From Bacillota bacterium (GTDB lineage: Bacteria; Bacillota; Ch66; Ch109), in assembly GCA_050952625.1 (NCBI GenBank), contig JBMNLH010000005.1, forward strand, positions 64,001 to 128,000: a stretch of DNA of 64,000 nt. Direction: 5' to 3'. The notes beneath the pieces were generated by a model. The model saw only the letters and a program-made list of their open reading frames with translations. It had not been told where the DNA came from and made no database searches. Positions 849-50,578 of this stretch are shown here, one piece after another; the stretch's first letter is position 1, and each line of letters begins with the position of its first letter. The position numbers were made by a program, and so were the translations under genes.

Positions 849-871
849 GCCACGGGGACGGTTCTCGTGGC
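849..871 (+). repeat. REP-like hairpin, family A
   Basis: GCCACGGGGACGGTTCTCGTGGC preceded by TAG-CA. Confidence 0.9.
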
Positions 872-1159
872 CGGTTTGGCACAAAAATATAGAAATACCT
901 TGCTAGTAAGATGTAATTAAAAACGATCGCGTTGACCACATCATAACAACCCCTACGGCTAGCTTACTGATTTTCTTCTATACTGGACTTGGTGTTGAGG
1001 GCTTGTTTTTCAGTATTTTTCGATGTGGTGGCTCTGAAAAATACACACAGTGGCTCTGCTTAATACACGGGGTGTGTCTAAGAATCGCACTGCCGAATCT
1101 AACAGTTGCCAGGATAAGCGAAACTGAAGCCAATTTAATCCCCTTCTGCCCAGAGCTGG

Positions 1160-1287
1160 AAAGCCGGCAAAAAGAAATCAAACAACTGCAACGCAAACTG
1201 GACCGGCAAAGAAGGGCGAATAACCCGGACAACTATAATCCAGACGGGACAATCAAAAAAGGCCGCCTAAAATGGTTAGCCAATTAG
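1160..1287 (+). pseudogene. tnpB: TnpB (IS200/IS605/IS607) internal fragment
   Basis: RQKEIKQLQRKLDRQRRANNPDNYNPDGTIKKG resembles a TnpB internal segment. Confidence 0.65.
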
Positions 1288-1540
1288 AAGAAGATATTTA
1301 ATTCATTTGAAAGGTCTGAAAAACCATTTCTAATACGAATAAGTTAGTTGAATTGTCAAGTTTTGATTGGATAAGATCATCATCCGGAGATCCACCTGAT
1401 TCATGATTATTTTGACCCTGAAGTTTGGTGGCAGAGCCAGGAGGACCAGAAACGGGGAGTTTTGGAGTATTTGAAAATCTTTCGCTTCTACATAAGGGAG
1501 CAGTTTGAGTTGTAAGTAGAGAGAGGGGGTCATCCATCTA

Positions 1541-2179
1541 ATGGATAAGTTGAACTTTAAAGGCCTCATTACATCAATCCAACCACGAATACGACTAACC
1601 CGTTCATTTGATGAAGCCTCTCATACATATTTGGGTTATGCCATTAAAATTGCCGGAACCATTGATAACCAAGATTTTTCCAAACAAACCATCTTCTCCA
1701 TCGGTATCGGCAAAGCAGCTCAAGCTAAATTTAACTTCAAAGTAAATGACATTATCTCCGGCGAATGCCTTCCTGTTTCGGATCCGGACATAGAGCCGGT
1801 AGATTATTATAAGGTGTCATAATTAGCTAAGGCAGTGGAAGGAGAGCCGGGCAGCCTATCAGCACCCTGGGAATTGGTTCCGCCGGAGCTGAAAGTTTAC
1901 CGGGAAAGGGGACACCGGAGACTGGCTGCCAGGACTTATGAAGCTAAATGCAGTAGCTGCATGTGGGGTGCTAGGATGCCGGTAGAAATAATAGTTGATA
2001 ACTGGAACCCAAAGGGCCGGAGGAAGTATCGGTTTGAGACTTTTTGTTATGGCCCTTTGAGTTGTAAATTGTATAAAGCTGGACCAAACAGAAAGGTAGA
2101 AGGCCGAAACGGGATGGTCTATGTGGAGGAAGATTGGGTTGATCAGATGATGACCGAACATCGGGAGCCGGATGAGTAG
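1541..2179 (+). pseudogene. Nonsense-disrupted paralog of the hypothetical gene at 7344-7988
   Basis: Near-identical protein; in-frame TAA at 1820-1822 where the paralog has AAA. Confidence 0.85.
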
Positions 2180-2641
2180 TTATTGTTAAAAAGAATATAA
2201 AATGAGTCAGCCATCCCATAATGTCCATCAATAGACGGAGTATAATGTCCGAGATATGACGGTGCCAATGACCAAAAATAATGTGATATTCAATGCTAGT
2301 GCCAGTGATCCAAAAGGTAAGGTTTTGTACTATTGGTTCAGTTTTTGGCCCAAAGGATTCATGTTCGCTAAAGACGAAATACGAATCCCTTGGGCTGATT
2401 GATTATTTTAGGCTTATGATGCCGGAAAGAGCCTTATAGGCATAGGCCACGGTTATGCTTTTTGACATTTTAGCTTGGCTCAAACACCTTGTTCATGCTG
2501 TGAGCTGAGGATGGGACTAGTAAGAGGCTAATGGTCTCCTGGTATGGAAAAATATTACACGATAATGGTAGAGTGTTTGGTGATCGGTTATAATGGTAAC
2601 ATCTTAAAATTGTTTATATGTAACATCGCAGAATTAGTTGT

Positions 2642-3694
2642 ATGATTGGAGGGATGTCTGTGAAAATTGAGGGGCTGCGGATAAAAAATTTTAAAATCCT
2701 AAAAGACATTACTCTGCGTAACTTGCCTAATATGGCTGTGTTTTTAGGGGCCAACGGTTCAGGAAAATCCACTCTCTTCGATGTTTTTGGCTTTTTGCAT
2801 GATTCCCTCATTGACAATGTTCGGGCAGCTCTGACCAAGCGAGGTGGATATAAAGAGGTAGTAAGTCGGGGACAGGAAGGACCAATTGAATTTGAAATAA
2901 AGTTTCGGCCATCCCCGGGCGAGACCCTGGTAACTTATGAATTGCATATTGGTTTAGATGGACGGGGGCTACCGGTAGTGCAGCGTGAATTATTAAAATA
3001 CCGACGAGGACAAAAAGGGAAACCATGGCATTTCCTCGATTTTTCTAATGGAGTGGGGCACGCTATCGTTAATGAGAGTGACTACGGCAAAAAGGGAGTT
3101 CAGGAGCAGCGGGAGGAACAAAAATTGGATTCCCCTGATATCCTGGCGATTAAGGGGTTGGGCCAATTTCAGAAATTTAAACAGGTAGCGGCTTTTCGCC
3201 GTTTAATAGAAGGTTGGCATGTTTCAGATTTTCATATTCAAGTAGCCAGAGCTAGTGTTGATGCCGGGTATGCGGAACACCTATCACCTACTGGCGAAAA
3301 TCTTCCTTTGGTAGCTCAATTTATGCATGAACATTATCCAGAACGGTTTCAACGAGTTTTACAAAAGATGGCAGAAAGAGTGCCCGGAATTGTTTCGGTA
3401 GAGGCAACTGAAACAGCTGATGGCCGAATTGTTTTACGTTTTCAGGATGATGCGTTTCGAGATCCCTTTGTGGCACGTTATGTTTCGGATGGGACCTTAA
3501 AGATGTTTGCTTACTTGCTGCAAATTCCTGGAGTAAAGTTTATTGTAGTCCGTGACCAGGATAGTGCTGATTGTATTCAGGTTAAGGAACGGTTACGGAC
3601 TCTTTGTATTCAATCTGATCACCCTGCCAACAAAAGGCAGGGTTTGATATTTTTCAGGAGGTGTTTAAGTCAAGCTAAAATGTCTAAAAGTTGA
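2642..3694 (+). pseudogene. AAA_21/AbiEii-type ATPase, truncated and fused to a remnant of a DUF4276-like partner
   Basis: Walker A GANGSGKS and SDGTL signature; no Walker B follows; sequence switches at ~3525 to FIVVRDQDSADC. Confidence 0.7.
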
Positions 3695-3864
3695 TGGAAT
3701 TGCCTGACCAGAGATTGCCGTATATAATGACCATATTATTGGCCGTAACATTTGGACACTAAAAGGGTGGTTTATTTGAAGGGTGCTGGCAATGGTTTTT
3801 CCATTTTATGCGGGGATTTTTAAGTTCTCTGCTTGGTATTTATTGTACCAAAAACAAACGGTGG

Positions 3865-3985
3865 TCATATCAAAAGTCGCAGTTTTTCCGAAACCTCTGC
3901 GATAACCTCGGGCGTAGCTGTACAGCAATATTCAGCCCCCCGTGCCTGCCAGTCGAGACTCTTAACCTGATCAGACAGCTTATGA
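3865..3985 (-). pseudogene. mazF: MazF/PemK toxin C-terminal fragment
   Basis: LSDQVKSLDWQARGAEY...EVIAEVSEKLRLLI. Confidence 0.65.
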
Positions 3986-4021
3986 AAGTCAATCCGTCTC
4001 AGGGGATTTTTATACAGTCTG

Positions 4022-4260
4022 CTGATGAAGCTGACTCTGGAGAAAGAATTGCCCACGGCAGCCACCCGGTGCTGGCCTGGATGATGGACAATATCCATAT
4101 CCGCACCGACCTGCCGGGAATATTAGACCGGATAAAACCAAGTCAACTGAAAAAATTGACGATGCAGTGGCTATGATTATGGCTCTTGACCGGTGTATCA
4201 GGAATGAGGGGGTCAGTAAAGATAAATCGGTGTATGATGAGTGGGGGCTGATTTTGCTTC
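4022..4260 (+). pseudogene. Phage terminase large subunit C-terminal fragment (frameshifted)
   Basis: LMKLTLE/RIAHGSHPVLAWMMDN/..PDKTKSTEKIDDAVAMIMALDRCIRN..SVYDEWGL. Confidence 0.8.
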
Positions 4261-4363
4261 ATATTTCAAGCTACTAAAACAAAGACCAGTATGTTAAAAT
4301 CTTATTGAAGCCTTCAATAAATTACCTTTATTTTAATTTATCAATTCGGAAGGAGGCGAGCAT

Positions 4364-5497
4364 ATGGCTACAGGTAGCAAAGTAGAGGTTAGCAGGGATA
4401 TTTATTTATGGGCGATTGAAGAATCCCAAAAAGATTTTATAGAGATAAAAAACAGATTCGAAAAAATTGAGACCTGGATTTCCGGGGAAGACTATCCTAC
4501 TTTTAGACAAGTGGAACGCCTAGCTAACTTTTTAGGGGTACCTTTAGGCTATATGTTTTTAGATGAGCCTCCTAGAACGAGCATAATTGAATCTGAATTC
4601 AGGACGATTGGAAACAAAATACCAGAAATTAGCAAGAATCTTCAAGACACCCTGTATATTATGGCCAGAAAAAAGGATTGGTTAAGTGAGTACCGCCGAG
4701 AAAAAGGCTGGAGCAAACTACTTCCCCATGATTTTGGTGAATTAAGCAGGGAAAACATTCTTCCTGCTAAAAAATATATTGACTTGGATGAGTTTTGGTA
4801 TAAAGAACATAGGAACAAAGGCACCGCTTTTAGATACCTTAGGCAGAGGCTTGAAGATAAAGGAATCATAGTTACGCAAAGCGGGATTGTAGGCTCTGAT
4901 AATCGCCGCAGGTTAGATGTAAATGAATTTAGAGGCTTTTTATTATATGATGACCTTGCACCTCTTATATTCATAAATAGTAGGGACAGCGAAGCGGGGA
5001 AAATTTTTACTTTGATTCACGAATACATTCACTTCTTATTGCAAGAGGATGATATATTCATCGATGAGGATAGCGATGAAACAAACATAAATATGATAAC
5101 GGCAGAGTTTTTAATGCCCACATCTCATGTTCAGGAACTATGGGATAATATTAGGCCGGAATTAGAACAAATTGAAGAATTAAGTAGACTGTTTCATGTT
5201 AGTAGATTAGCGGTAGCTATTAAGTTAAAGGACATAGGCAAAATTTCCCGGCATGTAGTCAATACAGTAAAACAGCAAACTGAAAAGGTGCTAAGTGAAA
5301 GGGGTGAGGAGGTGTCTAATGGTGGCGGTAACTACTACCGCACCATTAGATCCCGTCTTGGTGATAGTTTCTTAAGAGCTGTAATTCAGGGGGCGGAAGC
5401 TGGCGATATCAGCTACACCTATGCATTTGATTTGTTAGGCGGTTCCGCAAAACTGTATGATTACTTCAAAGAGGAATTTGTCGGCTATGAGAGATAA
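4364..5497 (+). CDS. XRE HTH + ImmA/IrrE metallopeptidase
   Basis: N-terminal PTFRQVERLANFLGVP HTH; FTLIHEYIH (HExxH); RBS AAGGAGG. Confidence 0.9.
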   Translation: MATGSKVEVSRDIYLWAIEESQKDFIEIKNRFEKIETWISGEDYPTFRQVERLANFLGVPLGYMFLDEPPRTSIIESEFRTIGNKIPEISKNLQDTLYIMARKKDWLSEYRREKGWSKLLPHDFGELSRENILPAKKYIDLDEFWYKEHRNKGTAFRYLRQRLEDKGIIVTQSGIVGSDNRRRLDVNEFRGFLLYDDLAPLIFINSRDSEAGKIFTLIHEYIHFLLQEDDIFIDEDSDETNINMITAEFLMPTSHVQELWDNIRPELEQIEELSRLFHVSRLAVAIKLKDIGKISRHVVNTVKQQTEKVLSERGEEVSNGGGNYYRTIRSRLGDSFLRAVIQGAEAGDISYTYAFDLLGGSAKLYDYFKEEFVGYER

Positions 5498-5978
5498 ATA
5501 CTTAATTGATGCAAACGTATTTATGACCGCCCATAGACAGCTATACCCATTTGATCTTGCCCCGAGCTTTTGGGAGCAGCTAGTTGAGAAAGCATCGGAT
5601 AGAATCGTAATAATCGAAGAAGTTCAAAAAGAAATACGAAGAGGCCAAGATTTACTAGTCGAGTGGTATGAAAGGGAGTGTGCCAAATTTACGGTCTTAG
5701 GGATACCTGACCCGAAAGTGATACACTCCTACAGAGTAATAATAAATTCAACAAATGCGAATGAGCAGTATACACCATCGGCCAAGAAGGAATTTGCTTC
5801 ATCAGCAGATTCGTGGCTATGTGCCTATGGATTGGCTTTTGGGGATACCATAGTAACCTTAGAAAAATATGAGGCCGATATTAAAAAGAGGGTAAAAATA
5901 CCCAACATTTGCAGGGAATTTGGGATTAAGTATATTGATTTATTGCAGTTCATGAGAGAAATAGGTATTAGGCTTTAA
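5487..5978 (+). CDS. DUF4411-family PIN-like protein
   Basis: YLIDANVF, ADSWLCAY, IVTLE, KIPNIC; overlaps the ImmA gene stop. Confidence 0.85.
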   Translation: MRDKYLIDANVFMTAHRQLYPFDLAPSFWEQLVEKASDRIVIIEEVQKEIRRGQDLLVEWYERECAKFTVLGIPDPKVIHSYRVIINSTNANEQYTPSAKKEFASSADSWLCAYGLAFGDTIVTLEKYEADIKKRVKIPNICREFGIKYIDLLQFMREIGIRL

Positions 5979-6174
5979 AGAAAATGTGTAACCACAAATG
6001 CTTATGATTTGGCAAAAAAGAAGCTTGAAGACATCTTCAAGAGATTTTTTGGATATTACTCCACCGGCATATATTCTGTCGCACGGCCATAGGCTGCTTT
6101 GGCATCTTTTACGCCAATTTCAGCCTGATCAACTTTTGCCTTCCTTTGTATACTATTGAGGGAGATGGTATTAG

Positions 6175-6609
6175 ATGGAAGTAAGGTTTGTTGATTCTGA
6201 GTTGGAGACGGTGATCGATCGGGTAATTAAATATTTCACAGAGATTGATGGGATTCAGGCAGCCTATTTGTTTGGTTCTTTTGCGACAAACAGAGTTACG
6301 GCAGAAAGTGATATTGATTTGGCGATTCTGACAAATGTAGCTTTGGATGAAGAACTCCTCTTCCAAATACAGGACACGCTAGAGGGATTAGTCGGCCGAG
6401 AAGTTGACTTGATAGACTTACGTAACTGTTCGCCAATTCTGGCTTATCAAGTTTTGAAATATGGAAAGAAGATTCTCCTTCGAGATGAACATGCCTTAAA
6501 TTTATGGATAATTCAAGTTTTGAACGCTTACTATGACTTAAAAATTGACCGTAGACCGATTGAGAGGAGTATTCTTGAGAGGAGCCACAGTAGAGGAGCT
6601 AGTATATGA
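6175..6609 (+). CDS. mntA: MntA-type minimal nucleotidyltransferase antitoxin
   Basis: LFGSFATNRVTAESDIDL (GSx10DxD). Confidence 0.85.
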   Translation: MEVRFVDSELETVIDRVIKYFTEIDGIQAAYLFGSFATNRVTAESDIDLAILTNVALDEELLFQIQDTLEGLVGREVDLIDLRNCSPILAYQVLKYGKKILLRDEHALNLWIIQVLNAYYDLKIDRRPIERSILERSHSRGASI

Positions 6610-7052
6610 TTAAGTTTAAAGCGGATCAAGATGTGGTCTTGGCAAAGGTGGCCATAATTCGACGTTGTCTGAAGCGGATTGAAAAGGTCACGGAAGGCGA
6701 CCCGGCTAAACTGGATACATATGATTGTCAGGATATCTTTGTCCTTAATTTGCAGAGGGCGGTACAAGCGACGATAGACCTGGCAGTTCATCTGGTAGCG
6801 ATTAATGAACTGGGCATGCCTTCTAATATAAAAGACAGCTTTGAATTATTGAAAAGAGAATCTATCATCTCTAGCGACTTGGCGGATAGAATGAAAAGAA
6901 TGGTTGGCTTTCGAAATATAGCGGTTCACGACTATCAGGCCCTTGATCCTGAGATCCTTAAATCAATTTTAACTACAAACTTAATTGATTTGGTAGAGTT
7001 TTATGAAGCGGTTTTGCGCAGCCACGGGGACGGTTCTTGTGGCTGGGTTTAG
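6606..7052 (+). CDS. hepT: HepT/DUF86 HEPN toxin; C-terminus encoded by a REP copy
   Basis: FRNIAVHDY (Rx4H); ATGA overlap with mntA. Confidence 0.85.
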   Translation: MIKFKADQDVVLAKVAIIRRCLKRIEKVTEGDPAKLDTYDCQDIFVLNLQRAVQATIDLAVHLVAINELGMPSNIKDSFELLKRESIISSDLADRMKRMVGFRNIAVHDYQALDPEILKSILTTNLIDLVEFYEAVLRSHGDGSCGWV

Positions 7053-7110
7053 TTTTGAATCTGTTGTTGAAAAATATTACACTAACAACCATGGGGACGG
7101 TTCTTGCGGC
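7021..7110 (+). repeat. Two REP-A hairpins (7021-7043, 7088-7110)
   Basis: GCCACGGGGACGGTTCTTGTGGC; ACCATGGGGACGGTTCTTGCGGC. Confidence 0.9.
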
Positions 7111-7343
7111 TGGCTTGGTGCTAAAATACGGAAGGCTAGCTAAAAACATTTCCTAAATAATATAAATAAATAAGTACCGGAAGTTCTCGGGGAATTTACG
7201 CTTATGGAGATTCCTCTACCGGGGTAATTGCGCAAGCAGCTACTAGGCATGAATCGGGGAAACAGGAATTTCTTTGGCATATTTGTCCATAAAAAAAGGA
7301 ACGGAGCAATTTGAATTGTAGGTGTAAGGAGGCTCAACACTTA

Positions 7344-7988
7344 GTGGACAAGTTAATTTTCACTGGAAAAATCACATCAATCCAGCCACGAATAAGACTA
7401 ACCCGTTCATTTGATGAAGCCTCTCATACATATTTGGGATATGCTATAAAAATTGCAGGAACCATTGATAACCAAGAAACGATATCATCAAATCAAAATA
7501 TGTTTTCCATTGGCATCGGCAAAGCAGCCCAAGCTAAATTTAAGTTCAAAGTTAATGACATTATCTCCGGTGAATGCCTCCCTGTTCCGGATCCGGACAT
7601 GGAGCCGGTGGATTATTATAAGGTATCGAAATTAGCTAAGGTGACGGAAGGAGAGCCGGGAAGCCTATCAGCACCCTGGGAATTAGTGCCGCCGGAGTTG
7701 GAGGTTTATCGCGAGCGGGGACACCGGCGGCTGGCGGCTAGGACTTATGAAACTAAATGCAGTAGCTGCATGTGGGGAGCTAGGATGCCGGTGGAGATAA
7801 TAGTTGATAATTGGAACCCCAGGGGCCGAAGGAAATACCGATTTGAGACCTTCTGCTATGGTCCTTTGAGTTGTAAATTATATAAGGCTGGCCCTAACCG
7901 AAAGGTCCAAGGCCGGAACGGGATGGTCTATGTGGAGGAAGATTGGGTTGATGAGGAGATGACGGGACATAGAGATCCAGATGAGTAG
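7344..7988 (+). CDS. Conserved hypothetical protein with Cys motifs (CSSC, CYGPLSC)
   Basis: GTG start after AAGGAGG; intact paralog of 1541-2179. Confidence 0.8.
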   Translation: MDKLIFTGKITSIQPRIRLTRSFDEASHTYLGYAIKIAGTIDNQETISSNQNMFSIGIGKAAQAKFKFKVNDIISGECLPVPDPDMEPVDYYKVSKLAKVTEGEPGSLSAPWELVPPELEVYRERGHRRLAARTYETKCSSCMWGARMPVEIIVDNWNPRGRRKYRFETFCYGPLSCKLYKAGPNRKVQGRNGMVYVEEDWVDEEMTGHRDPDE

Positions 7989-7990
7989 CA

Positions 7991-8013
7991 ACCGCGGGGA
8001 CGGTTCTCGTGGT
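7991..8013 (+). repeat. REP-A hairpin
   Basis: ACCGCGGGGACGGTTCTCGTGGT after TAG-CA. Confidence 0.9.
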
Positions 8014-8361
8014 TGGTTTGGCACTAAAAAACAGAAATGCCTTGCTAGTAGATTTTAGAGTAAGGGGCAAATAATGAAGCGTAAGGCGTGAGTGGTGAGG
8101 CGTGTAGCCCGCCCCTAAACCTTATTTATATTTTCATCAGTGCTTATGCCGTACGGGCACAGGTGATTAGTTAGATAATCAAAGTAATAATCAATCATTC
8201 ATTTTACTCGCTTGGATATTTTAGGGGATATTGAGTTGCATAGACAGTATGCTGCAGTGATCCTGGGGGGAGGAATTCACGTCTGTGCGATTGTCCGCAA
8301 GCTTTCCCAGGAGGAATGGGGTAGCCTTTTAGCGGATTTTATATAGCGAATGTGGGGTAAT

Positions 8362-8823
8362 ATGACTTTAAAGAAAATTCTACCTTGGGTTGCTGTGACT
8401 TTTTGGATGGCTTTATTATTCTATTTATCTCATCAACCAGCAACAACATCTAATGAGTTGAGTACTGGCCTAACAGCGGTTATTATCCAAACGATAGAGA
8501 AAGTGATTCCCGGGGTGGAATTTGATCTAAGCTGGGTTAATCATCTCGTCCGGAAAAGTGCCCATTTCATGGCCTACTTGGTTTTAGGCAGCTTAGTGAT
8601 CAATGCTTTAAAGGGCAGTAGGGCCGTTGGTTATATTGGATATAAGCTTGTCCTTTTGGCTTTGTGCATCTGTATTTCGTATGCCATATCGGATGAAGTC
8701 CATCAGTTATTCGTTCCCGGCCGAGGCGGACAGCTAAAGGACGTCATCCTGGACAGTGCCGGAGCGACTATTGGGATTTATGTATTTAGGTATTTTTCTC
8801 TAAAAGGAACTGGGGTGCGTTAA
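8362..8823 (+). CDS. vanZ: VanZ family membrane protein
   Basis: RKSAHF..Y and YAISDEVHQLFVPGRGGQLKDVILD. Confidence 0.9.
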   Translation: MTLKKILPWVAVTFWMALLFYLSHQPATTSNELSTGLTAVIIQTIEKVIPGVEFDLSWVNHLVRKSAHFMAYLVLGSLVINALKGSRAVGYIGYKLVLLALCICISYAISDEVHQLFVPGRGGQLKDVILDSAGATIGIYVFRYFSLKGTGVR

Positions 8824-9252
8824 ATATCTACTACCAGGGTTTCGGCCGGTGTTTTCATGGGGTTCACCTTCTTTCTACTGTAATGGGTCATTGAAGGTTA
8901 TTGGCAGCCGTCATCGCGGGTATTCATTAATGACGTAGGAAATCAAAATGTCCTAGTTATCCGTCGACTTCGTTGTCGTCATTGCCACCGGATACATCAC
9001 GAACTTCCGGATATCCTGGTTCCATATAAACGCCATAGCAGCGAAAGCATTGAGTCGGTTAATTGGCTTAGAACGAAATTATTTCTTGATTCAAAGGGAT
9101 AGCCTTTTGCCCCAACCTACCAGGTCAAGCGAGGGGTGTGCATGAAAGCCGCTTTCCAGCAAGGGACCTGGCCTTGACACAACAAATAGCCGGAAGGTCC
9201 TAAATGGATCGCCCAGCTGTTTTTTGTTGAAAAACAAAACCAAGCCAAGTAA

Positions 9253-9330
9253 GTGCAAAACCTGGAAGGTGTTGGCTTTACCGTGGTTCCCTTCGGTCAA
9301 GGTTTTAAGGATATGAGTCCACCAAACAAG
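9253..9330 (+). pseudogene. Phage terminase large subunit fragment
   Basis: VQNLEGVGFTVVPFGQGFKDMSPPNK. Confidence 0.75.
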
Positions 9331-9391
9331 GCAGCAATAGTTTCCTTTTTTTAGCCCAGGTCTGTTCCGCGGTTAAATCGGTACCCGCCAC

Positions 9392-9705
9392 TTTATGACT
9401 GGCGGCATACCTGGCACAATTGGTCAGGAGTAGTTCGTTGAGTTCGTCCAAAATTTTTACGTGAGGGATGGGGGTTAGAAAGTTCCTTCTTACGTACCCA
9501 CCAGGTTTTCCATTTGCCCTTTTTGGTTACCCCGTCCTGGTGTGCAGTAGATCGATTCAAAAAGAAAGTGGCTGCGCAGGGCGATGAACTGGTTTTGCTC
9601 ATGACGGGTCCTGCCCCGTAATACCTTTAGAACCGCTGCTTTCAGTTTGTCATAGGTGATGGTTGCCGGTACCCCGCCATAATAGGTAAATGCCTCTACA
9701 TGTCC
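9392..9705 (-). pseudogene. istA: IS21-family IstA transposase fragment
   Basis: GHVEAFTYYGGVPATITYDKLKAAV...CTPGRGNQKGQMENLVG/VRRNFLTPIP. Confidence 0.8.
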
Positions 9706-9965
9706 GGCTACCTCAGCCTGAACTTGCCTTCATTTTGTTCGGTTGTACTAACCTGTTTCTCATTCGTAACTATCCCCTATAAAAATGCGAATATATTGCA
9801 TATCGCAATACATTTTCACATTCACAATATGGTATTAACCGCTCATGATAAAGTTTCCATCTGAAGCCTTGATTGAAGGGAGCCTCAATTGAAGTTCGAT
9901 GTTCAGCAATGTTGAATGAGTCCAATTTTTATTTAGGTCAAATTTTTGTCAGCAACAAGAACCGT

Positions 9966-10096
9966 CAGACTGTGTGAAAACCAATTTTTTCTCTATATAT
10001 CCACAAAAATGATATGATTTAACTAGAAGATACAATGGAAAGGGTGGGTTTATGGGGTACATTCATGGTCAAGACAGGACGTTTTCACACAGTCTG
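9966..10096. mobile_element. 131-bp MITE with 16-bp perfect terminal IRs and 4-bp TSD, inserted in a REP-A hairpin
   Basis: CAGACTGTGTGAAAAC ... GTTTTCACACAGTCTG flanked by CCGT at 9962-9965 and 10097-10100. Confidence 0.85.
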
Positions 10097-10877
10097 CCGT
10101 CCCCGTGGCTGGGGTGTTAGCTTCTTTCTGTATTACCCACCTACTAATGCCAGTTATTCTAGAGATCTGTCTGATCGACAAACCCTCGGTACAGAGCTGT
10201 TTTACATATTCATTTTGTTTTTCTCGATCTAGATTCTGCAGTTCATGGCTGTGGTTTACCTGACACACCTTTTTGATTAATTCAATGGCCTCCTGGTCTT
10301 TCCATTTCTTCTTTTCATCGACTTCCAAGCAGACTTCTTTTTCTTCAATGGCGTGGAAGGCTTTAAACTGCTTTTTGGCCTTCTCCCGGTTACCATCAAA
10401 TAAATTGAACACAAAATCTGTATCGACAAGCTTGGGCTGGCCGATAAACTCTCGGTAACTACTCCAGGGATAATCAGTTATCTTGTTTATTACGCCGGCT
10501 TTGATCGGATTTTGATGAATATATCGTAGAACGGTTAAAAAATACCGGTCATCTTCCACCGGCTCGCTTTTGTAACGATCCTGAAATAGATGGCCACATC
10601 GTTCATGTTTCCAGTTATACCAATAAACATAGCTCGCACCGATCCGCCGCATGGTCATGCCCAAGTTTTCTTTTTCTTCCTTCAGCAGCAGATGTACGTG
10701 GTTGCTCATCAAACAGTATGCGTATAATTTGAATTCGCTCTTCTGCTTATATTTTTCTAAGGTCCATAAAAACTGCAGTGCATCTTCCTTATCCTTGAAA
10801 ATAGTCTGCCGGTTGATCCCGCGTAAAATTATATGATAGATCCCGGTTTCGCTTTTTCTTCGAGCCGTTCTGGGCAT
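10050..10877 (-). CDS. REP-associated tyrosine (HUH/Y1) transposase, RAYT/TnpA-REP-like, with C-terminal HTH
   Basis: MPRTARRK..GIYHIILRGINRQTIF; MSNHVHLL (HUH); GHLFQDRYKS; YIHQNP; RBS AAGGAGG; REP-A copies on both sides. Confidence 0.9.
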   Translation of the reverse strand: MPRTARRKSETGIYHIILRGINRQTIFKDKEDALQFLWTLEKYKQKSEFKLYAYCLMSNHVHLLLKEEKENLGMTMRRIGASYVYWYNWKHERCGHLFQDRYKSEPVEDDRYFLTVLRYIHQNPIKAGVINKITDYPWSSYREFIGQPKLVDTDFVFNLFDGNREKAKKQFKAFHAIEEKEVCLEVDEKKKWKDQEAIELIKKVCQVNHSHELQNLDREKQNEYVKQLCTEGLSIRQISRITGISRWVIQKEANTPATGTADCVKTSCLDHECTP

Positions 10878-10927
10878 TTTATTCCCTCCTTATATTGCAT
10901 CATATCACTTTATGGCTGCTTTTGCCA

Positions 10928-11021
10928 GCCATAAGAACCGTCCCTTTGGTTGTTTTTTTGCTGCTTCTGTCAGCCAGAACCTCCGGTCGTGGTCGCCAGC
11001 CACGAGAACCGTCCCCGTGGT
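10928..11021 (-). repeat. REP-A hairpins upstream of the RAYT (10928-10950, 10999-11021, plus a degenerate copy between)
   Basis: GCCATAAGAACCGTCCCTTTGGT; GCCACGAGAACCGTCCCCGTGGT. Confidence 0.9.
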
Positions 11022-11104
11022 TGTTGCCCTATCTTGAGTTATCCATGGTATAATGGGGAAGGAAGGTGATTGTAGAAAATAATACCTATGGGGGGCTAAT
11101 ATTG

Positions 11105-13324: not shown

Positions 13325-13335
13325 GTGGTGGTTTA

Positions 13336-15661
13336 ATGCCAGACAGAGCCGCAATTTTTGAGTTGGATAATTTTTGTTTGGATAATTATCACGTTAAATT
13401 AAATGAGGTGCTGTTTCACAATGCCAATGGGTATATCGGGGTGCGTTACGATTTGGAAGAAGGCTATCCGGGCGAATATGATGTGACCCCCAGTCAATAT
13501 ATCAACGGGTTCTATGACTTTGCCAAGTTAGGCCAGGCGGAAAAATTGTACGGGTTGACAGATGAAAAACAAACCATTTTAAACATTGCGAATACCCAGC
13601 CGATCCGGATCACTTTTGAGGATGAGGAGTTCAGCATGTTTACCGGCACCGTGCTGGAGAGCCGGCTGCGCCTGGATATGAATCGGGGGGTAACGGTCAG
13701 GGAGGTCAAATGGCGTTCGCCCCAGGGGAAAGAGATTAAGTTAACGGTTACGCGAATGGCCTCTTTTTATCAACTTCCATTATTTACGATTGAATATGAA
13801 GTGGAGCCGTTAAATTTTACCGGCGATGTTGTGATTGAATCGGTGCATCAGGGAAATGTGTTAAATTATGTTAATCCGGCGGACCCGCGGATTGCGCAGG
13901 AACGGATTCGGTATTTGACCCCCATCAGTTGTGAAATCAAAAAGGGGGCGTCTTATATAACCTCTAAAACCTCAAAATCAGGCCTGGAGGTCTGCACCGG
14001 CGTCAAAAACCTCTTGCCGCAAGAACATCAGCAGGAGTTTATTATAGATAATAATGATGCTGTTTGTCGGTTTAATGCCGTCGCTAAACAGCGAAAAAAA
14101 ATCCGGTTGATCAAGTATGCCGTTTTTTGCGATTCGATTCGCTACCCGGATTGTCGGCAGCAGGCAGAAACTGAACTGAAGAAGGCTTTATCGGTGCCTT
14201 TGGAAGAGTATTACAAGAAGCAAGCCGCTTACCTGGCGGAATATTGGGATAATTGTCTCGTGGAAATCGATGGGGATGAATCGGTGAATAATGCTATTCG
14301 CTACAATTTATACCAATTATTTCAATCAGTGGGCAAGGACAAGTACTGTAATATCTCCCCGAAAGGATTAAGCGGCGATGGTTATGAGGGGCATTATTTC
14401 TGGGATTCCGAGATGTATATCTACCCCTTTTTCACGATCACCAATCCGGCCATTACCCGCAAGCTGCTGGAATACCGGTATGCAACGCTTGACCTGGCTC
14501 GGGAGAATGCCCGGATATTAGGTCATCAAAGCGGGGCGCTGTATCCCTGGCGCACGATTATGGGCCGCGAATGCTCCGGGTTTTTCCCGGCCGGTTCGGC
14601 CCAGTACCATATCAATGGCGATATTGCCTATGCCATTATTGCTTATTATTTAGCGACCAAGGATTTGGCGTTTATTCGAGAAATGGGAGCCGAGATGATT
14701 TGGGAAACCGCTCGGCTATGGATTGATGTGGGCAGTTTTTACGCCGGGAAATTTTACATCAATGACGTCACCGGTCCGGATGAGTACACCTGTATCGTAA
14801 ATAACAATTATTACACGAATGTGTTGGCGCAATACCACTTGACCTGGGCGGTAAAGTTTTACCATCTATTAAAGGCAGCTGGCGGGCTAGCAGATTTGGA
14901 ACGGAAAATCCAGATTAAAGAGTCGGAAATAGCGCTTTTTCAGCGAGCGGCTGAAAGCATGTACCTGCCCTACGATGCGCAGTTAAAAATTAATCCGCAG
15001 GACGACTCCTTCCTGCAGAAGAAACCGTGGGATCTGGCCAGTATTCCGCGAGACAAGTTTCCTTTGCTGCTCCATTATCATCCTCTGCATTTATACCGGC
15101 ACCAGATCTGCAAACAGGCGGATACGGTGATGGCGCATTTTATCCTGGAAGACGCGCAGTCCCCGGAAACCATCTTAAACTCGTTTAATTACTATGAAAA
15201 GATCACGACCCACGATTCTTCGCTGTCCCGGTGCATCTTCAGCATTGTGGCGGCCCGGTTGGGGATGGTCGACAAGGCTTACGCCTATTTTCGAGCACAC
15301 GGTTCGTTTAGATCTGGACAATCTGCATCGGAATACGCCAGACGGCATTCATACCGCCAATATGGGCGGTAGTTATATGGCTGTGGTCTATGGCTTTGGG
15401 GGGTTCCGGCTGAAAGAGAGCGGCTTCTATTTTGCGCCGGTTTTACCGGCGGCCTGGACCGCCTATCGCTTCAAACTCCGCCTGGAAGAGAGCCGGATTG
15501 CCGTGGAGGTCAAGGAACACGAGTGCGTGTTCAGGCTGGAGAACGGCCCGGCCATAAAGATATTTGTCTATGGCCAAGAGTACCGGTTAACTGACACGCT
15601 GACGGTCGGCCGACAGCCGACAGCCACGGGGACGGTTCTTGTGGCCGGTAAGTCGCGGTAA
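13336..15661 (+). CDS. GH65 glycoside phosphorylase (trehalose/kojibiose type), frameshift near 15290
   Basis: KGLSGDGYEGHYFWD, GPDEY, KQAD, HDSSLS; C-terminus DGIHTANMGG continues in another frame. Confidence 0.9.
15623..15645 (+). repeat. REP-A hairpin inside the GH65 3' end
   Basis: GCCACGGGGACGGTTCTTGTGGC. Confidence 0.9.
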
Positions 15662-16040
15662 CATATTAATCCATAACGGATTCGTTTCATGCAGGGTGCA
15701 GAGCCGGTTGAGTCTACTCTCGGTAACATACTAATCCTTAACGCCCGCCGGCAGCCGGCGGGCAACAAACTGGCCTGCTCAAGTCGCGGTAACATACTGG
15801 CCGGTAAGTCGCGTTCCAGCCAAGGGGACGCGTTATGTCGTCGAGGTGAGTTTCCAACGAAAAGGGATCTGGGAATAGGGATCTGGCTCGTAACATATTA
15901 ATCCATATTCGTTATGTCAAAACATGGGCCATGATCTATATATCTAGCGGGGATGGGCAACCATCTAACTAGGAGTTAAAGAAGCAGGAATTTCTAAAGC
16001 AGGAATATTGTTCAACAAAGAAAGGAACGGTTTCGGTTGC

Positions 16041-16709
16041 ATGAAGTACCAAGCGATTATCTTTGATTTAGACGGGGTTATCTGCCACACGGACCAGTAT
16101 CATTATTTGGCCTGGAAACAAATCGCCGATGAGCTCGAGGTCTACTTTGATGAGCAGATCAATAACCGGCTGCGAGGCGTCAGCCGCCGGGAAAGCCTGG
16201 AGATAATCCTGGAAGCCTATCCGGGCCGGCTAACTGAAGAAGAAAAGACTTATTACACCGAGAAGAAAAATGGACTTTACCGTAGTTTACTGCAAAACAT
16301 GTCGCCGGCTGATGTCACCGCAGAGGTAAGGGAAACCCTGGACCAGCTAAGGTCCCAGGGGATTCTCCTGGCCATCGGCTCCTCCAGCAAAAACGCGAAA
16401 TCCATCTTAAAACAAATCGGCCTGGAGGATTACTTCGATGCCGTATCAGACGGGACCAACATTACCCATTCCAAGCCGGATCCGGAAGTGTTTTTAAAAG
16501 CCAGTCAGTTTCTAGGGGTTGAACCGCGGTTGTGCCTGGTGGTGGAAGATGCCAGATCCGGCGTAGAAGCCGCCCTAGCCGCGAACATGGATTGCGCGGC
16601 CATCGGCGACGCCACCAAATACAACCTGGCCCAGTACAACCTCCAACGTTTCTCCGACTTACTGCAAATCAGCCAATTCAGCCACGGGGACGGTTCTTGT
16701 GGCCGGTAA
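16041..16709 (+). CDS. pgmB: Beta-phosphoglucomutase
   Basis: IFDLDGVI, HYLAWKQIA, SSSKNA, KPDPEVF. Confidence 0.92.
   Translation: MKYQAIIFDLDGVICHTDQYHYLAWKQIADELEVYFDEQINNRLRGVSRRESLEIILEAYPGRLTEEEKTYYTEKKNGLYRSLLQNMSPADVTAEVRETLDQLRSQGILLAIGSSSKNAKSILKQIGLEDYFDAVSDGTNITHSKPDPEVFLKASQFLGVEPRLCLVVEDARSGVEAALAANMDCAAIGDATKYNLAQYNLQRFSDLLQISQFSHGDGSCGR
16681..16703 (+). repeat. REP-A hairpin inside the pgmB 3' end
   Basis: GCCACGGGGACGGTTCTTGTGGC. Confidence 0.9.
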
Positions 16710-16861
16710 AATATGAGACATAGCAATAAAACTCTCGGGGGCGATTGACGGAATGGGGATTTATCTGCTAGATGGACACCGGGTTTTCCGAAGACACTGA
16801 TTGCCGAAAATGCTATAATAGATAGCCAACAGAATGATACGTGTAAGCGAGGGGTTATTGC

Positions 16862-17916: not shown

Positions 17917-18218
17917 AGAAAGCACGGGGGAGGTTCTTCTGCTTCTTTGATTTGTGAGGCATGAGGCGTAAAGGGTTGAAAAAATACAAATATGTTTAAC
18001 TTTGCCTAAGGCGTTTTGGATAAAGGTCAGATCTGGTTAGGGGTTGTATGCATCTAACACATTAAGTTAATTAAGTTAATGTTAACATCAGATATTCTAA
18101 CATTTAACGTCTTACATCTAACGTTTAACATTTAACGTTTAACATCTAAATCTATCGTCTATCGTCTAAAAATACTTTGTCGCCGTGGGTGATAACTCAG
18201 TGAAAGGAACTATGCTAA

Positions 18219-19454: not shown

Positions 19455-19456
19455 CA

Positions 19457-19820
19457 GCCACGGGGACGGTTCTTGTGGCTGGCAAACGCGGTGCTCAACA
19501 ATGGGGCCGGTTTTTATGGCTGACAAACGTGGTACTATCGGTCGGTTTGTCCCTCGTAACTCGTAATATTATATTAATAATACCCCAGCTTCAAACTTAG
19601 TTGTACAATCCTGAGTTCGGGCTTTGTCCCTCATATTAATTAAAATAATATTCAGAGGAAACCGCTGGGAGTTACAGGCGAGGCAATAGTTTGTCCCTCT
19701 ATAATTAAATAATATCTTGGTTTCGTTTTCTTCGGGCTGTTCTGGGAATTGCATGCTATCTTTTTGTTTGGCATAGCCCCTTACGGAGCTTCTACTAGCC
19801 ACAAGAACCGTCCCTGTGGC
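19457..19820. repeat. Inverted pair of REP-A hairpins (19457-19479 +, 19798-19820 -), REPIN-like
   Basis: Two copies in opposite orientation bracketing non-coding DNA. Confidence 0.85.
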
Positions 19821-19892
19821 TGGGTGTTTATTATGTCTCGCAGGTGGTTATACTTGTGATTAAGTAACTATCTGTTATCGGAGGGGGTAGTT

Positions 19893-35712: not shown

Positions 35713-35725
35713 GTTTTCAGGAGCA

Positions 35726-35840
35726 ACCGGAGGGACGGTTCTTCCGGCCGGAGCAACCGTCCAACCGGAGGGACGCTGCCGGAGAAATGAATCTTCCGGT
35801 TGAGGCCGCAAGCGATTTCGTTCTTCTTCCGGTTGAGGAA
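35726..35840 (+). repeat. REP-A variant with compensatory stem, plus degenerate tandem copies
   Basis: ACCGGAGGGACGGTTCTTCCGGC. Confidence 0.8.
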
Positions 35841-45072: not shown

Positions 45073-45163
45073 TGGATAACCCTCTCTTTATTGAAATCGG
45101 GTAAACCGGGCAAAAGTGCCAATTAGTATTAATATTCTCCAAAAAGAGCCGGGAGTATCCATA

Positions 45164-45217
45164 ACCGGGGGGACGGTTCTTCCGGCCGGTTGTTGCCACG
45201 GGGAAGGTTTTTCCGGC
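45164..45217 (+). repeat. Two REP-A variants
   Basis: ACCGGGGGGACGGTTCTTCCGGC; GCCACGGGGAAGGTTTTTCCGGC. Confidence 0.75.
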
Positions 45218-45787
45218 CGGGATAAAATTGGCACCGGTCGGTTGTGGGACAGGTTAAGTTCTTTAAGAACAATTACGCGCGTGTGATAACTCGGTCTGCC
45301 GGCTAGACGGGGAACGAACCTTGTTGCTTCGGATAGGACTTGTCTCCCCCTCTAGCCCCGCCATACGCTAACTGGGAACGAACCTTGTTGCTTCGGACAG
45401 GCATCAAACTCGTCCGGCGAGCTCAAACAGCGATACCAGCTGATCCTCAGCCAGCTCTGTTCCTTGTGTAAGCTGCCAATCGCTGACCTGCGTTAAACCA
45501 TGGCTCGATCATGGTTTTTCCTGTTCTGGACAGCGTACGAAGCGGCATGGGGGTCTAATAAGACGTTGTTTCTATCAGTCACATGGTCGGGGTAAAGGAG
45601 TAGAAACGGATTCTGGGGTTTAATAAGATGTTTTTCTATCAGTTTTGAAAGTTGGGCAATTGAGTGCATGAACTCAAAAATAGGTCTTTGGTCCCGATCA
45701 AACTGCTAGTATTTTGACTGTTTTTGTCGTATTATACATTGCAGGGTATTAAGATTAATAATTAACGTGGATAATATTGTAACAAAA

Positions 45788-45920: not shown

Positions 45921-45945
45921 CCCGTTTGGATAAACGGGTTTTTTT
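45921..45945 (+). terminator. Riboswitch expression-platform terminator
   Basis: CCCGTTT-GGAT-AAACGGG then T7; upstream hairpin CTTTAATTCA/TGAATTAAAG at ~45889-45915. Confidence 0.8.
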
Positions 45946-45983
45946 AATAACTACTTAAACACTGGAGGTGAAACACTACGGCT

Positions 45984-46145: not shown

Positions 46146-46177
46146 GGGTTTAAAATTAAATAAGGGAGAGGAATATT

Positions 46178-48169: not shown

Positions 48170-48193
48170 CCACATCAGCCCAGTAGCCCAGCA

Positions 48194-48261
48194 GCCAAAG
48201 GGACGGTTCTTGTGGCAGGGAGCAGGGGGGACGGGCTAGCCAAAGGGACGGTTCTTGTGGG
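48194..48261 (+). repeat. REP-A cluster
   Basis: GCCAAAGGGACGGTTCTTGTGG at 48194 and 48239. Confidence 0.85.
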
Positions 48262-48279
48262 AAGGAAGCCGGGACGACT

Positions 48280-48434
48280 CCCCGACTTCCTCTATGAAAC
48301 AGATGACCGAATGCAGCTGGATGATCGAGCAGCTGACCAAGCTGCCCCCGACTTCCTCATATGAAACAGATAACCAAGACCAAGGAATCTTCAGTAAGCC
48401 AAAACCAGGTTCCCCAGCTTCCTCTTATGAAACT
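48280..48434. repeat. Three ~66-bp-period repeats; the third is cut by the IS4 element
   Basis: CCCC(GA/AG)CTTCCTC(A/T)TATGAAAC(AGAT) at 48280, 48346, 48412. Confidence 0.7.
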
Positions 48435-50040
48435 CACTAGTGTTGCATTAAATTTTTTAACAAAGCACTAAGTAGTTCATTATCATAAATGCTTAATAAA
48501 TATACATGTTAATTACCATAATATAACTGGTCCTATAAGAAAAAACTCCTTATAATAGAGATGTACAGGTAGTCCTGTCCATAATCTCTAAGATAAGGAG
48601 ATCCCACTTATGGACAAGGATACCAAAAAATCTGCATTTCGTGAATGCCTTGAGCCTATATTTGTATCTAGTTTTCAAAAGCTACTTAAAACCTGGGACA
48701 TTGACAAGTACGTCAAAAAGCTGTTCGCTAATAACTTTATCCTTTTAATGCTTTACGCCCAGATTGATTGCCTTGACAGTTTGCGCCATACGAGTCAGAT
48801 ATTGAAGGATAGTGAAAAACTTCAGGAACTTATTGGAATAACTTCTATAAGTGCATCACAGCTATCCAGAAAACTCAGAGAAATGTCAACCGAAGTTCTT
48901 GAAAAATTGTTTACTGAACTCGTAAAGGAGCTAGAAGCAACAATTGGTCATAAAGCAATGAGTCATCGTCTTAAAAGGATTTTCTTGGTGGATGCCTCGG
49001 TGATTAGCTTTTGTCTCTCCAATCACCTTTGGGCAACCTACCGGAAAACTAAGGCCGGAGTCAAGCTTCACCTAAAACTAGCCTTTTATCCTGAAGTCGG
49101 GGTTTATCCTTATACGGCAATTATCACAACCGCTAAAGGTAACGACCGGACTCAAATGGATAACTTGGTCGTTGAAGAATCTGGAGATGCGCTTTACGTT
49201 TTTGACCGAGGTTACATTGATTACGAGAAGTTCGACAGCTATTGTGATAATAACAACCAGATCCGGTTTGTCAGCCGTTTAAAATCAAATGCGGTCAAGG
49301 AGTTAATCCTAGAGCAAAAGATCCTGGTTGATAATGAATGGGCACTGGAGCGAATTGTTCGTCTGGGCAGACCGGGAGTTAACCAAATGAAACATCCTCT
49401 ACGGTTAATTGAAACCCGGGATACTCAAGGAAATGCCGTCACGATTGTAACCAATAACTTTGAATTAACTGCCCAAGAAATCAGTGATATTTACCGGAAC
49501 CGGTGGGCAATTGAACTATTTTTTAAATGGGTGAAGCAACATCTCAAGGTCAAAAAGTTTTATGGTAATAGCGAGAATGCCGTAAAGAATCAGATTTGGC
49601 TAGCCCTCATATCCTTTTGTTTGATGACATTACTCCAATCAAAGGTAAAGTTCTCGGGAGAGCTCTTGAGTCTTCAACGTCTTCTACAATCTTGTGGATA
49701 TGATTCTTTAGAACTTTTCCTCGACAAGTTGTTTAGGCCACCAGCTCGTAAATCTAATGGTGGAAGGCGAAAGAATACATGGGAACAGGAATTCTGGCGG
49801 CTTAACGAAGAAACATTGCTTTATGGGACTAGTATTCTAGATGAAATGACCCTGGATCTTATTTAACAAAATTAGGCAACGAAATGTGGCACAGGACTAT
49901 CTTTAATTGATCACTTGCTTTTTAACATTTACAGGAAAAATCCTGTTCAGAATATTCAATCTTCGTCTATTTAGCCCTATATATAAGCCAGTGTAAAATG
50001 CACTTAGAAGAAATGGGTTAAATTTTATGCATCACTAATG
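48435..50040 (+). mobile_element. Complete IS4-family insertion sequence with 9-bp TSD
   Basis: IRL CACTAGTGTTGCATTAAATTT, IRR AAATTTTATGCATCACTAATG; TATGAAACT duplicated at 48426-48434 and 50041-50049. Confidence 0.92.
48610..49866 (+). CDS. IS4-family DDE transposase
   Basis: ISASQLSRK, LVDAS, VFDRGY, YRNRWAIELFFKWVKQHL. Confidence 0.95.
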   Translation: MDKDTKKSAFRECLEPIFVSSFQKLLKTWDIDKYVKKLFANNFILLMLYAQIDCLDSLRHTSQILKDSEKLQELIGITSISASQLSRKLREMSTEVLEKLFTELVKELEATIGHKAMSHRLKRIFLVDASVISFCLSNHLWATYRKTKAGVKLHLKLAFYPEVGVYPYTAIITTAKGNDRTQMDNLVVEESGDALYVFDRGYIDYEKFDSYCDNNNQIRFVSRLKSNAVKELILEQKILVDNEWALERIVRLGRPGVNQMKHPLRLIETRDTQGNAVTIVTNNFELTAQEISDIYRNRWAIELFFKWVKQHLKVKKFYGNSENAVKNQIWLALISFCLMTLLQSKVKFSGELLSLQRLLQSCGYDSLELFLDKLFRPPARKSNGGRRKNTWEQEFWRLNEETLLYGTSILDEMTLDLI

Positions 50041-50399
50041 TATGAAACTATGAAAACAGATATGTATTTTGAGCAGAAAAGAACGAACTTATTGGTTTTG
50101 CTTGACACTCCTCAAGGCTGAAGTCAGGCACTTGACGACCTATTTTGCTAATAGTAACCAACTTGTCCGAATTCAGTTTCCGGAGTAACTGAGCAGTGAA
50201 AAAGGAAATCGAGCAGATGTTGAGGAAGGCAACTTCCAGGAATTAACAAAGCAGAAGTCTAAAAGGCCTGGTAGAGTATTAATCTATCGGGTCATTTGTT
50301 TTTCAAAGGAGGCACGAAGATTAAGGGGATGCGAGCACCATCCTGGTTTCTCCCTCAAGATTCAGGCGGTAGGAGAACGGTTCTTGTGCTCCCATATCC

Positions 50400-50578
50400 C
50401 CTTATCCCTTTATCTCTCTATCTCTCTATTTCTCTATCTCTCTGTTTCTCTATCTCTCTGTTTCTCTATCTCTCTGTTTCTCTATCTCTCTACGAGAACC
50501 GTCCCCGTGGCTGGGTGCATCTCTCCATCTCGCCACGAGAACCGTCCCCGTGGCTGCCGCGAGAACCGTCCCCTTGGC
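50400..50578 (-). repeat. (TCTCTR)n microsatellite abutting three REP-A copies
   Basis: CT-rich hexamer tract 50400-50491; REPs at ~50489-50511, 50532-50554, 50556-50578. Confidence 0.85.

Follow-up and report, generated by a model that had tools for sequence, protein, structure and literature searches.

The window analysed here is a stretch of 64,000 nucleotides (nt) from a Bacillota genome originating from anaerobic digesters (G000:C5:64001-128000; the source genome G000 comprises 2.91 Mb at 45% G+C in 9 contigs). On its minus strand, at 10050..10877, lies a 275-codon gene for a Y1 HUH nuclease of the RAYT/TIRYT type. Copies of a hairpin of about 29 nt flank this gene on both sides and recur over the window and the remainder of the genome, often at the ends of open reading frames (ORFs). 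Below we describe the gene, the hairpin family and the relation between the two.

The gene is intact and present in a single copy in G000, and the final 24 codons of its ORF run into the downstream hairpin and a miniature inverted-repeat transposable element (MITE). Its product contains the Pfam domain Y1_Tnp (2.8e-15) and passes the NCBIfam equivalog model NF047646 (REP_Tyr_transpos) marginally, with 80.2 bits against a cut-off of 80. The features of class 2 TnpA_Y1 proteins are present: the HuH motif (H60-V-H62), the catalytic Y119 within YIHQNP (Y119-I-H-Q-N123-P124) and a fold closest to that of TnpA_REP. In an alignment of 35 homologues no change is seen at H60, H62, N123 or P124, and Y119 is kept in at least 90%; a WSSY serine motif and a C-terminal helix-turn-helix (HTH; GLSxRQIxRxTGISR, located at about residues 194-253) are conserved as well. 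The AlphaFold (AF2) model has a mean pLDDT of 85.5 and shows helices at 194-253. Its best structural match is 4er8_A, the E. coli TnpA_REP bound to a hairpin of the repetitive extragenic palindromic (REP) type (Foldseek E 1.1e-8; VIA Z 18.9 and root mean square deviation 2.5 over 162/165 residues), followed by the IS608 transposase (Z 10.6); 4er8 is also the sole PDB match by sequence profile (E 2e-6). Residues 195-262 give middling matches to the HTH domains of ParB, KorB and DnaA domain IV (VIA Z 4.8-6.1). Among 8000 candidate proteins scored, at least 7747 match at E<=1e-5, and the names that are given read 'transposase' or 'REP element-mobilizing transposase RayT'. An earlier note, made from the letters of the window, had called the gene a RAYT-type Y1/HUH enzyme, and the domain, profile and structure matches agree; judged from sequence and model, the product is a class-2 Y1/HUH nuclease with an added C-terminal HTH, for which nicking and DNA binding are predicted. 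One other Y1 gene is seen in G000, of the IS200 type and spread over two frames (C1:1584141-1584493, minus strand, 117 bits to PF01797); it probably represents a disrupted IS200 transposase with no relation to the hairpins.

The gene is indeed bracketed by the hairpin, with two copies upstream and one downstream, all on the minus strand. Upstream hairpin 1 (10925..10952) has its core 57-67 nt 5' of the start codon, on the gene's strand; upstream hairpin 2 (10996..11023) also has an exact core. The downstream copy, reported as split in the earlier note, truly is: its 5' half (ccagccacgGGGACGG, 10097..10112) lies within the 3' end of the Y1 ORF and its 3' half (ACGGTTCTtgttgctg, 9950..9965) follows after an insertion of 131 bp. 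This insertion (9966..10096) is a MITE with 16-bp terminal inverted repeats, placed in the core of the hairpin and flanked by duplicated ACGG. A second copy interrupts the core of another hairpin (G000:C4:337674-337803) at the same junction and with the same duplicated ACGG, in opposite orientation, and further copies are found in G001, a genome of the same genus. By its sites of insertion the MITE targets the hairpin core. An intact allele of the downstream hairpin is represented by P0001, a 99% identical protein of 269 amino acids from other contigs, which ends in ...PATGTVLVADKDLP and thus reads through an uninterrupted hairpin; the insertion in the window is therefore recent.

Number, structure and folding of the hairpins

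Copies were searched with the 11-mer GGGACGGTTCT (hereafter the core), allowing at most one mismatch in the window and using 100 dinucleotide-preserving shuffles as a control. The window yields 18 matches, 17 of them exact, against a shuffle average of 0.97 (maximum 5; 0/100 reach 18). Exact cores start at 855, 7027, 7094, 7997, 15629, 16687, 19463, 35732, 45170, 48200 and 48245 on the plus strand and at 10934, 11005, 19804, 50495, 50538 and 50562 on the minus strand, in each case 6 nt inside the start given in the earlier note. Three decayed copies with two core mismatches each (17927, ~45201 and 50374) and the split copy complete the set, so that the roughly 20 copies listed beforehand are all found where they were claimed.

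That note had also proposed a genome-wide count and a covariance model, both of which we provide. G000 contains 59 exact cores (35 on the plus and 24 on the minus strand; 19 on C5, 18 on C4 and 17 on C1), and a model derived from 47 copies retrieves 70 matches at E<=1; for 63 of these E is below 0.01. The spread is uneven: 19 of the 59 hairpins are on the 138-kb contig C5, which carries the Y1 gene, and a hairpin-free stretch from 706 kb to 1.477 Mb on C1 surrounds a switch in GC skew near 1.32 Mb. No Rfam family is found at the hairpins, either at the gathering score (whole window) or at E<=5 (6900-11100). In print, the 10-mer or 11-mer or its complement occurs in 64 papers; the 20 matches listed are primer-type sequences from unrelated fields, with no microbial context among them.

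The repeat unit measures about 29 nt and reads CA-RCCNNN-GGGACGGTTCT-NNNGGY-YGG. Information content falls to zero beyond it, so the dispersed copies are bare hairpins rather than parts of longer elements. Within the core, four inner pairs (G.T, G-C, G.T, A-T) are closed by a CGG loop, whereas the outer stem is variable. We aligned the 47 copies used for the model, of which 17 are window copies and the other 30 flank related genes elsewhere; as every row was picked for an exact core, the invariance of the core in this alignment is by construction. Of the stem cells 87.2% are paired, against 74.8% after shuffling (0/500 shuffles reach the observed value) and 38-57% with slid partners, and at 7 of the 12 stem pairs changes on both sides (compensatory changes) are seen. 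The co-variation of the outer stem that had been noticed by eye is thus confirmed.

Most copies were said to carry a CA dinucleotide at the 5' foot, and that is correct for the window (15/17 copies) and for 40 of the 59 copies in the genome. The proposal that it defines a class fails: C stands opposite G in 40/59 copies and A opposite T in 21/59, and the two columns differ in other genera. In this lineage CA is the base of the stem, unlike the unpaired GTAG tag. A second family of stems, GGAAGCAAG...CTTGCTTCC, often with the variant core GGGACGGTCCT, is seen in G000 at C1:446106, C1:1299980, C2:63288, C4:118692, C4:197330, C4:337818 and others; it is the dominant family (TGAAGCARG...CTTGCTTCA) in G002, a genome of another genus.

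Folding on one strand only, the other property that had been attributed to the hairpin, depends on the nucleic acid. With DNA energies the strands are about equal (top/bottom for four copies: -7.2/-6.3, -7.1/-7.2, -5.1/-5.4 and -4.9/-4.7 kcal/mol). With RNA energies the top strand is better in all four (-17.4/-10.2, -14.9/-12.7, -11.9/-11.3 and -12.1/-10.4 kcal/mol), and clearly so in three. The outer palindrome folds on either strand, and the inner G.U extension is clearly stabilising only as RNA. At outer pairs 3, 6 and 7 the top strand frequently has A.C mismatches (13, 20 and 16 of 59 copies); here the bottom strand would give G.T wobbles, the reverse of the inner stem.

Position at gene ends, age and turnover

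Within 70 nt of a hairpin we counted 43 ends of ORFs (at least 80 codons) on the same strand against 7 on the opposite strand, which bears out that copies are located at gene ends, on the gene's own strand. In 15 of the 59 copies the stop codon is positioned at -3 to +2 nt relative to the first base of the hairpin, and in 8 copies the spacing is zero (TAA|CA or TAG|CA). About 11 more ORFs pass through the hairpin and stop 22-44 nt beyond its foot. None of the 15 abutting stops is TGA, which makes up 0.21 of the stops in the genome (P ~0.03).

Two ORFs were compared with their orthologues. At 16679..16706 (plus strand) the hairpin supplies the final nine codons of a 246-codon ORF (read as SHGDGSCGR), and the TAA of the ORF follows at 16707-16709; the protein reads ...SQFSHGDGSCGR and is 11 residues longer than its orthologues, which end in ...LIV (G003) and ...LYV (G005). 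At 19455..19482 (plus) a 411-codon ORF stops with TAA at 19454, immediately before the hairpin, at ...YFGLT, whereas the frame extends for 9, 10 and 13 further residues in G002, G004 and G003. Contigs from an RNA library span this upstream ORF through the hairpin and show presence only; contigs of public runs over 18680-19515 show a 24-letter difference of uncertain position.

Stops also immediately precede the hairpins at 847..874 (plus; TAG of a 243-codon ORF on the same strand) and 7989..8016 (plus; TAG of a 231-codon ORF). The copy at 7019..7046 (plus) is read through by a 149-codon ORF. Insertion 3' of TAR as a target site was considered and rejected: copies away from ORF ends have no TAR before CA, the one exception being the hairpin at 7086..7113 (plus), where TAA (7083-7085) precedes CA and no long ORF ends. 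The stop is thus not a fixed part of the element. Exact abutment is also not general, being found in 0 of 30 copies in the genome G182; in G002 zero spacing is likewise absent, and 13 of 30 copies follow a same-strand stop at a distance of 4-24 nt. Intrinsic terminators were rejected as an identity of the hairpins, a T run being present behind few copies only. The abutment may be due to target choice, to RNA-level selection or to a sub-line that brings a stop of its own.

For 43 of the 59 copies (binomial P ~3e-4) the top strand has the sequence of the leading strand and so serves as the lagging-strand template. A bias of the active strand towards the lagging-strand template is known for IS200/IS605 elements. 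Coupling to the gene strand goes beyond this replication bias: 29 of 31 close ORF ends are on the hairpin's strand, where a fraction of about 0.67 is expected (P ~5e-4).

The remaining copies in the window are single hairpins at 15621..15648 (plus; the same copy is present in G001), 19795..19822 (minus; exact core) and 35724..35751 (plus; stem ACCGGA/TCCGGC), a decayed one at 17919..17946 (plus; core GGGGAGGTTCT), and several groups. A decayed copy (core GGGAAGGTTTT, ~45193-45220) lies behind the hairpin at 45162..45189 (plus); about 600 nt downstream of this pair is a c-di-GMP-I riboswitch (RF01051, 45784-45880, plus; 62.8 bits against a gathering score of 35). Two direct copies occupy 48192..48264 (plus; cores 48200 and 48245) and three direct copies 50486..50580 (minus; cores 50495, 50538 and 50562), with the decayed copy at 50374 on the plus strand. 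A tandem repeat (50403-50492; 16-nt unit TCTCTATCTCTCTGTT, 4.8 copies, 98% matches) adjoins the three-hairpin cluster. Another short repeat (~44 nt, ...gtgttttaactcggtcagcaagctagactgg) is present twice in G000:C4:276740-277010, beside the hairpin at C4:276984, and once in locus L155 of G001.

G001 is 90-97% identical to G000 in the loci compared (up to 99.6% in parts of the window), and most hairpins occupy orthologous sites in the two genomes, though each also has copies that the other lacks. A G002 copy that is still intact, though with a different stem, is the orthologue of the decayed one at 17927; many copies are therefore old. Indels of 97 and ~300 nt end exactly at a hairpin border (loci L164 and L168). 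G001 has its Y1 homologue, with only 45% identity, elsewhere in the genome (L176); the corresponding region of G000 (C1:1617769-1618253) has no such gene, so that the two genomes carry different paralogues in different places. Apparent hairpin excision in public runs (contigs of three DNA libraries and one RNA library, window 1-20000) was rejected, as the joints listed at hairpins are short-sided (21-28 nt), lead from hairpin to hairpin and are best read as cross-matches between repeats.

Linkage of gene and hairpin in the Bacillota

To compare loci, one genome per species was scanned and the best 80 of 380 relatives (79 loci) were used, of which 55 loci have both flanks. The best 80 include Pelotomaculum (73% identity), Syntrophomonas, relatives of Desulfotomaculum, Acetobacterium, Sporomusa, Alkaliphilus, two Bacillaceae and many uncultured Bacillota. 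A core with at most one mismatch is located 30-120 nt upstream, on the gene's strand, in 41 of the 55 loci; a downstream copy is inverted in 32 and direct in 7, the latter being the arrangement of this window and of its closest relatives. Copies are present on both sides in 35 loci and absent from 11. The flanking copies share the same outer stem within one locus and differ between loci. By eye, the 3' arm of the upstream copy often enters a TTGACA-like hexamer, which is followed by a TATAAT-like one.

Paralogues in G182 come with variant cores of their own: one gene is bracketed by GGGACGTTTCG, another is accompanied by GGGACAGTTCT, and three more paralogues have no core within two mismatches.

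A second sample consisted of 300 other Bacillota genomes (301 including G000), in which homologues were called at E<=1e-10 and copies counted as exact cores. A homologue is present in 92 of the 300 (93/301 with G000). Where the gene is present the median is 9.5 cores (53 of 92 genomes have at least 8), and where it is absent the median is 1 (13 of 208 have at least 8); the reversed control pattern never exceeds 9. A rank test of copies against gene presence gives P ~3e-22, a value that is overstated since the genomes are related. Equal abundance of the motif in genomes lacking the gene had been named in the earlier note as the outcome that would break the link, and the medians of 9.5 and 1 are far from it. 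The association recurs in many families, and the same 11-nt core is shared by many families of the phylum, which does away with the idea that the hairpin is a family owned by this particular gene.

Interpretation and comparison with known systems

Given these observations, the window probably contains a system in the style of REP/RAYT, of the TIRYT/TIRtron type, in which a single-copy nuclease gene is situated between cognate hairpins of ~29 nt. The direct observations on which this reading builds are the association of gene and hairpin, the co-variation of the stems, the paralogue-specific cores, and the placement of copies with its strand bias. Recognition by the enzyme would be of the invariant hairpin top, made up of the four inner pairs and the CGG loop, on one strand while the DNA is transiently single-stranded, and Y119 would nick and rejoin the DNA near the hairpin foot; the variable outer stem would need only to pair. 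The ~60 copies may have been seeded over time in this way. Many of them, old and vertically inherited, would survive where harm is least or where there is some benefit, that is behind or inside the last codons and on the coding strand, and those at gene ends would be transcribed as stable 3' RNA hairpins.

The closest class known is that of the TIRYTs/TIRtrons, described by Di Nocera 2013 (PMC3733652) as RAYT-like genes bracketed by inverted repeats with GGGGWSAS, some of them self-complementary, in moderately abundant families. The accessible text of Quentin 2018 (PMC6006769) equates them with TnpA_Y1 subclass 2.1, whose proteins are long, with a C-terminal HTH and the signature Y---NP; this is the second largest group of Y1/HUH transposase relatives there, found in 14.9% of strains. 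The likeness extends to the long protein, the C-terminal HTH, the Y---NP, the serine motif beside the catalytic tyrosine and the moderate abundance of the families; the bracketing of the gene at fixed distances by repeats with a common G-rich motif resembles that of TIRYTs in part. The core here (GGGGACGG) agrees with GGGGWSAS at 7 of 8 positions, and that of one G182 paralogue (locus L180; GGGGACAG) at 8 of 8. A difference is that each repeat is here a hairpin with an 11-nt core common to a phylum. Inverted flanks, as described for TIRYTs, occur on the downstream side in 32 of 55 related loci, and the window has a direct copy there. The Pfam families Bac_DnaA_C, HTH_23 and HTH_28 are found in 0 of 35 members at E<=0.01, and HTH_7 in 2 of 35, with thresholds and profiles that differ from Quentin's. 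Membership of TIRYT / subclass 2.1 is likely, as judged by features rather than by placement in a tree. The arrangement matches that described in PMC3733652 and PMC6006769. The distinct class with a CA foot that the earlier note had proposed is not upheld; what we see is a Bacillota branch of a known kind.

Classical REP/RAYT systems of Proteobacteria (REPtrons) are similar in other respects. The E. coli TnpA_REP (4ER8) is the best structural relative (Z 18.9), the gene is likewise single-copy and located between its own hairpins, and dispersed extragenic hairpins lie behind genes. Here, however, the 5' flank is CA-RCC (40/59) without a GTAG or GT[AG]G tag, and there are ~60 copies instead of the 'usually >100' per genome stated in the accessible part of Nunvar 2010 (PMC2817692), so that two defining features of the classical systems are lacking. 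In addition, the core is conserved phylum-wide, whereas REPs are species-specific, and the protein has an extra HTH of ~60 residues. The CGTC-tagged REPs of Di Nocera were considered and set aside: CGTC occurs in the reverse complement of the core, where it sits in the loop and provides no end tag. IS200/IS605 elements (IS608, ISDra2) share the Y1 HUH fold and, as is presumed here, recognition of a hairpin on one strand. They differ by a much weaker structural match (Z 10.6 against 18.9) and by flanking hairpins on one strand, which are mostly inverted here; the Y---NP signature, the single-copy gene and a protein of 252-275 residues (theirs have ~130-150) also set the present system apart. 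Finally, Group 1 RAYTs are described in the accessible text of Bertels, Gallie and Rainey 2017 (PMC5581495) as the widest group, including Clostridia, with a modest abundance of flanking 16-mers (12 occurrences) and some duplication. By this description they resemble our case in their Clostridia members, modest repeat abundance and some duplication, the likeness being one of description rather than of compared sequences; that part of the paper gives no hairpin sequence for the Clostridia members.

We found no published description of RAYT/REPIN in Clostridia, Bacillota or three genera. The searchable text of PMC3733652 with its supplement, and that of PMC6006769, contains no treatment of Firmicutes, and the accessible part of Nunvar 2010 does not mention them.

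Several observations weigh against the proposed system. Thirteen of the 208 genomes without a detectable homologue carry 8-43 copies. No Y1 domain was found in G002 (41 copies) or G055 (10), which are drafts of 94% and 90% completeness, and the hairpin-rich G005, G008 and G035 have Y1 genes of the IS200 type only; hairpin-rich drafts without the gene are 90-99% complete. In G004, from the family of the window, the orthologue is broken and 18 copies are still present. Conversely, the number of exact cores is 0-2 in 19 of the 92 genomes that have the gene; some of these may use other cores, variant cores having been examined in G182 only. A comparison of 30 G001 hairpin loci with G000 gave no clean pair of filled and empty sites, the intergenic flanks being too diverged, and no insertion event was seen. 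The near-equal DNA energies mean that the choice of strand cannot rest on stability alone. Moreover, the gene ends are those of crude ORFs, read from stop to stop with no annotation used, the genomes compared are related and hence are not independent samples, and binding, cleavage, mobilisation and any role at the RNA level are predictions whose mechanism is taken entirely from homology. As in such genomes, copies of the E. coli REP are known to persist after loss of the gene. Maintenance of the hairpins by the adjacent enzyme, as the earlier note had it, is not supported, given the relatives that keep 8-43 copies without the gene and the orthology of the 17927 copy across genera.

The hairpin might also be regarded as a movable gene-end module, which would land or be kept at exact coding ends, remodel C-termini and set a stable 3' RNA hairpin against the terminating ribosome; either the pair of enzyme and hairpin would aim at these sites, or some sub-line of the element would bring a stop with it. 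We consider this unlikely.

It could be argued that gene and hairpins form an active insertion sequence, in which the gene moves as a unit with two terminal hairpins; the hairpins dispersed elsewhere would then be solo ends or miniature derivatives. The bracketing hairpins do resemble terminal inverted repeats, the gene is a multi-copy family in some genomes (28 matches in G039 and 13 in G027), and in one Sporomusa chromosome the similarity between four loci starts at the hairpin. Yet these Sporomusa copies are diverged and not identical, and G000 has one copy only. The dispersed copies, moreover, are bare 29-nt hairpins without conserved flanks, many of them are orthologous with G001 and one with G002, and the downstream copy is direct in the closest relatives. 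Altogether an active insertion sequence seems quite unlikely.

Distinctly improbable, in our estimate, is that the hairpins are primarily RNA elements of the host (3'-end stabilisers, terminator-like structures or sites for host factors), beside which the Y1 gene merely lands. Such a role would suit the 29 of 31 close ORF ends on the hairpin's strand, the better folding of the top strand only as RNA, the persistence of copies without the gene and the RNA-library contigs that cross the hairpin at 19455-19482 from the upstream ORF (presence only). Random landing, however, would not lead one to expect a core at a fixed position on both sides of the gene, flanking copies with shared stems or paralogue-specific cores; in addition, none of the 30 copies in G182 abuts a gene end, few copies have a T run behind them and no Rfam family matches. 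A chance or compositional artefact can be dismissed, given 17 exact cores against about one expected, a count that none of the 100 shuffles reaches, and only 0-1 matches of the reversed control pattern in G000.

Returning to the TIRYT/TIRtron type of system, the window adds a phylum-wide count of gene and core, paralogue-specific cores, a folding asymmetry confined to RNA, the abutment of stops and a MITE directed to the core. We know of no DNA substrate and no biochemistry for subclass 2.1. REP-like sequences for this subclass were not found by either an automatic or a manual search according to the accessible text of PMC6006769, the automatic one having required a GTAG/GTGG tag. The hairpin provides a candidate substrate for subclass 2.1-like enzymes: it combines a short length with an invariant 11-nt core and an outer stem free to vary, and natural variants of the core are paired with paralogues. 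With a defined candidate substrate and variant cores at hand, assays of binding, cleavage and specificity can be designed directly. For the organisms themselves, the hairpins mean that REP-like repeats exist in Gram-positive anaerobes, where they keep one core across the phylum and shape the ends of genes.

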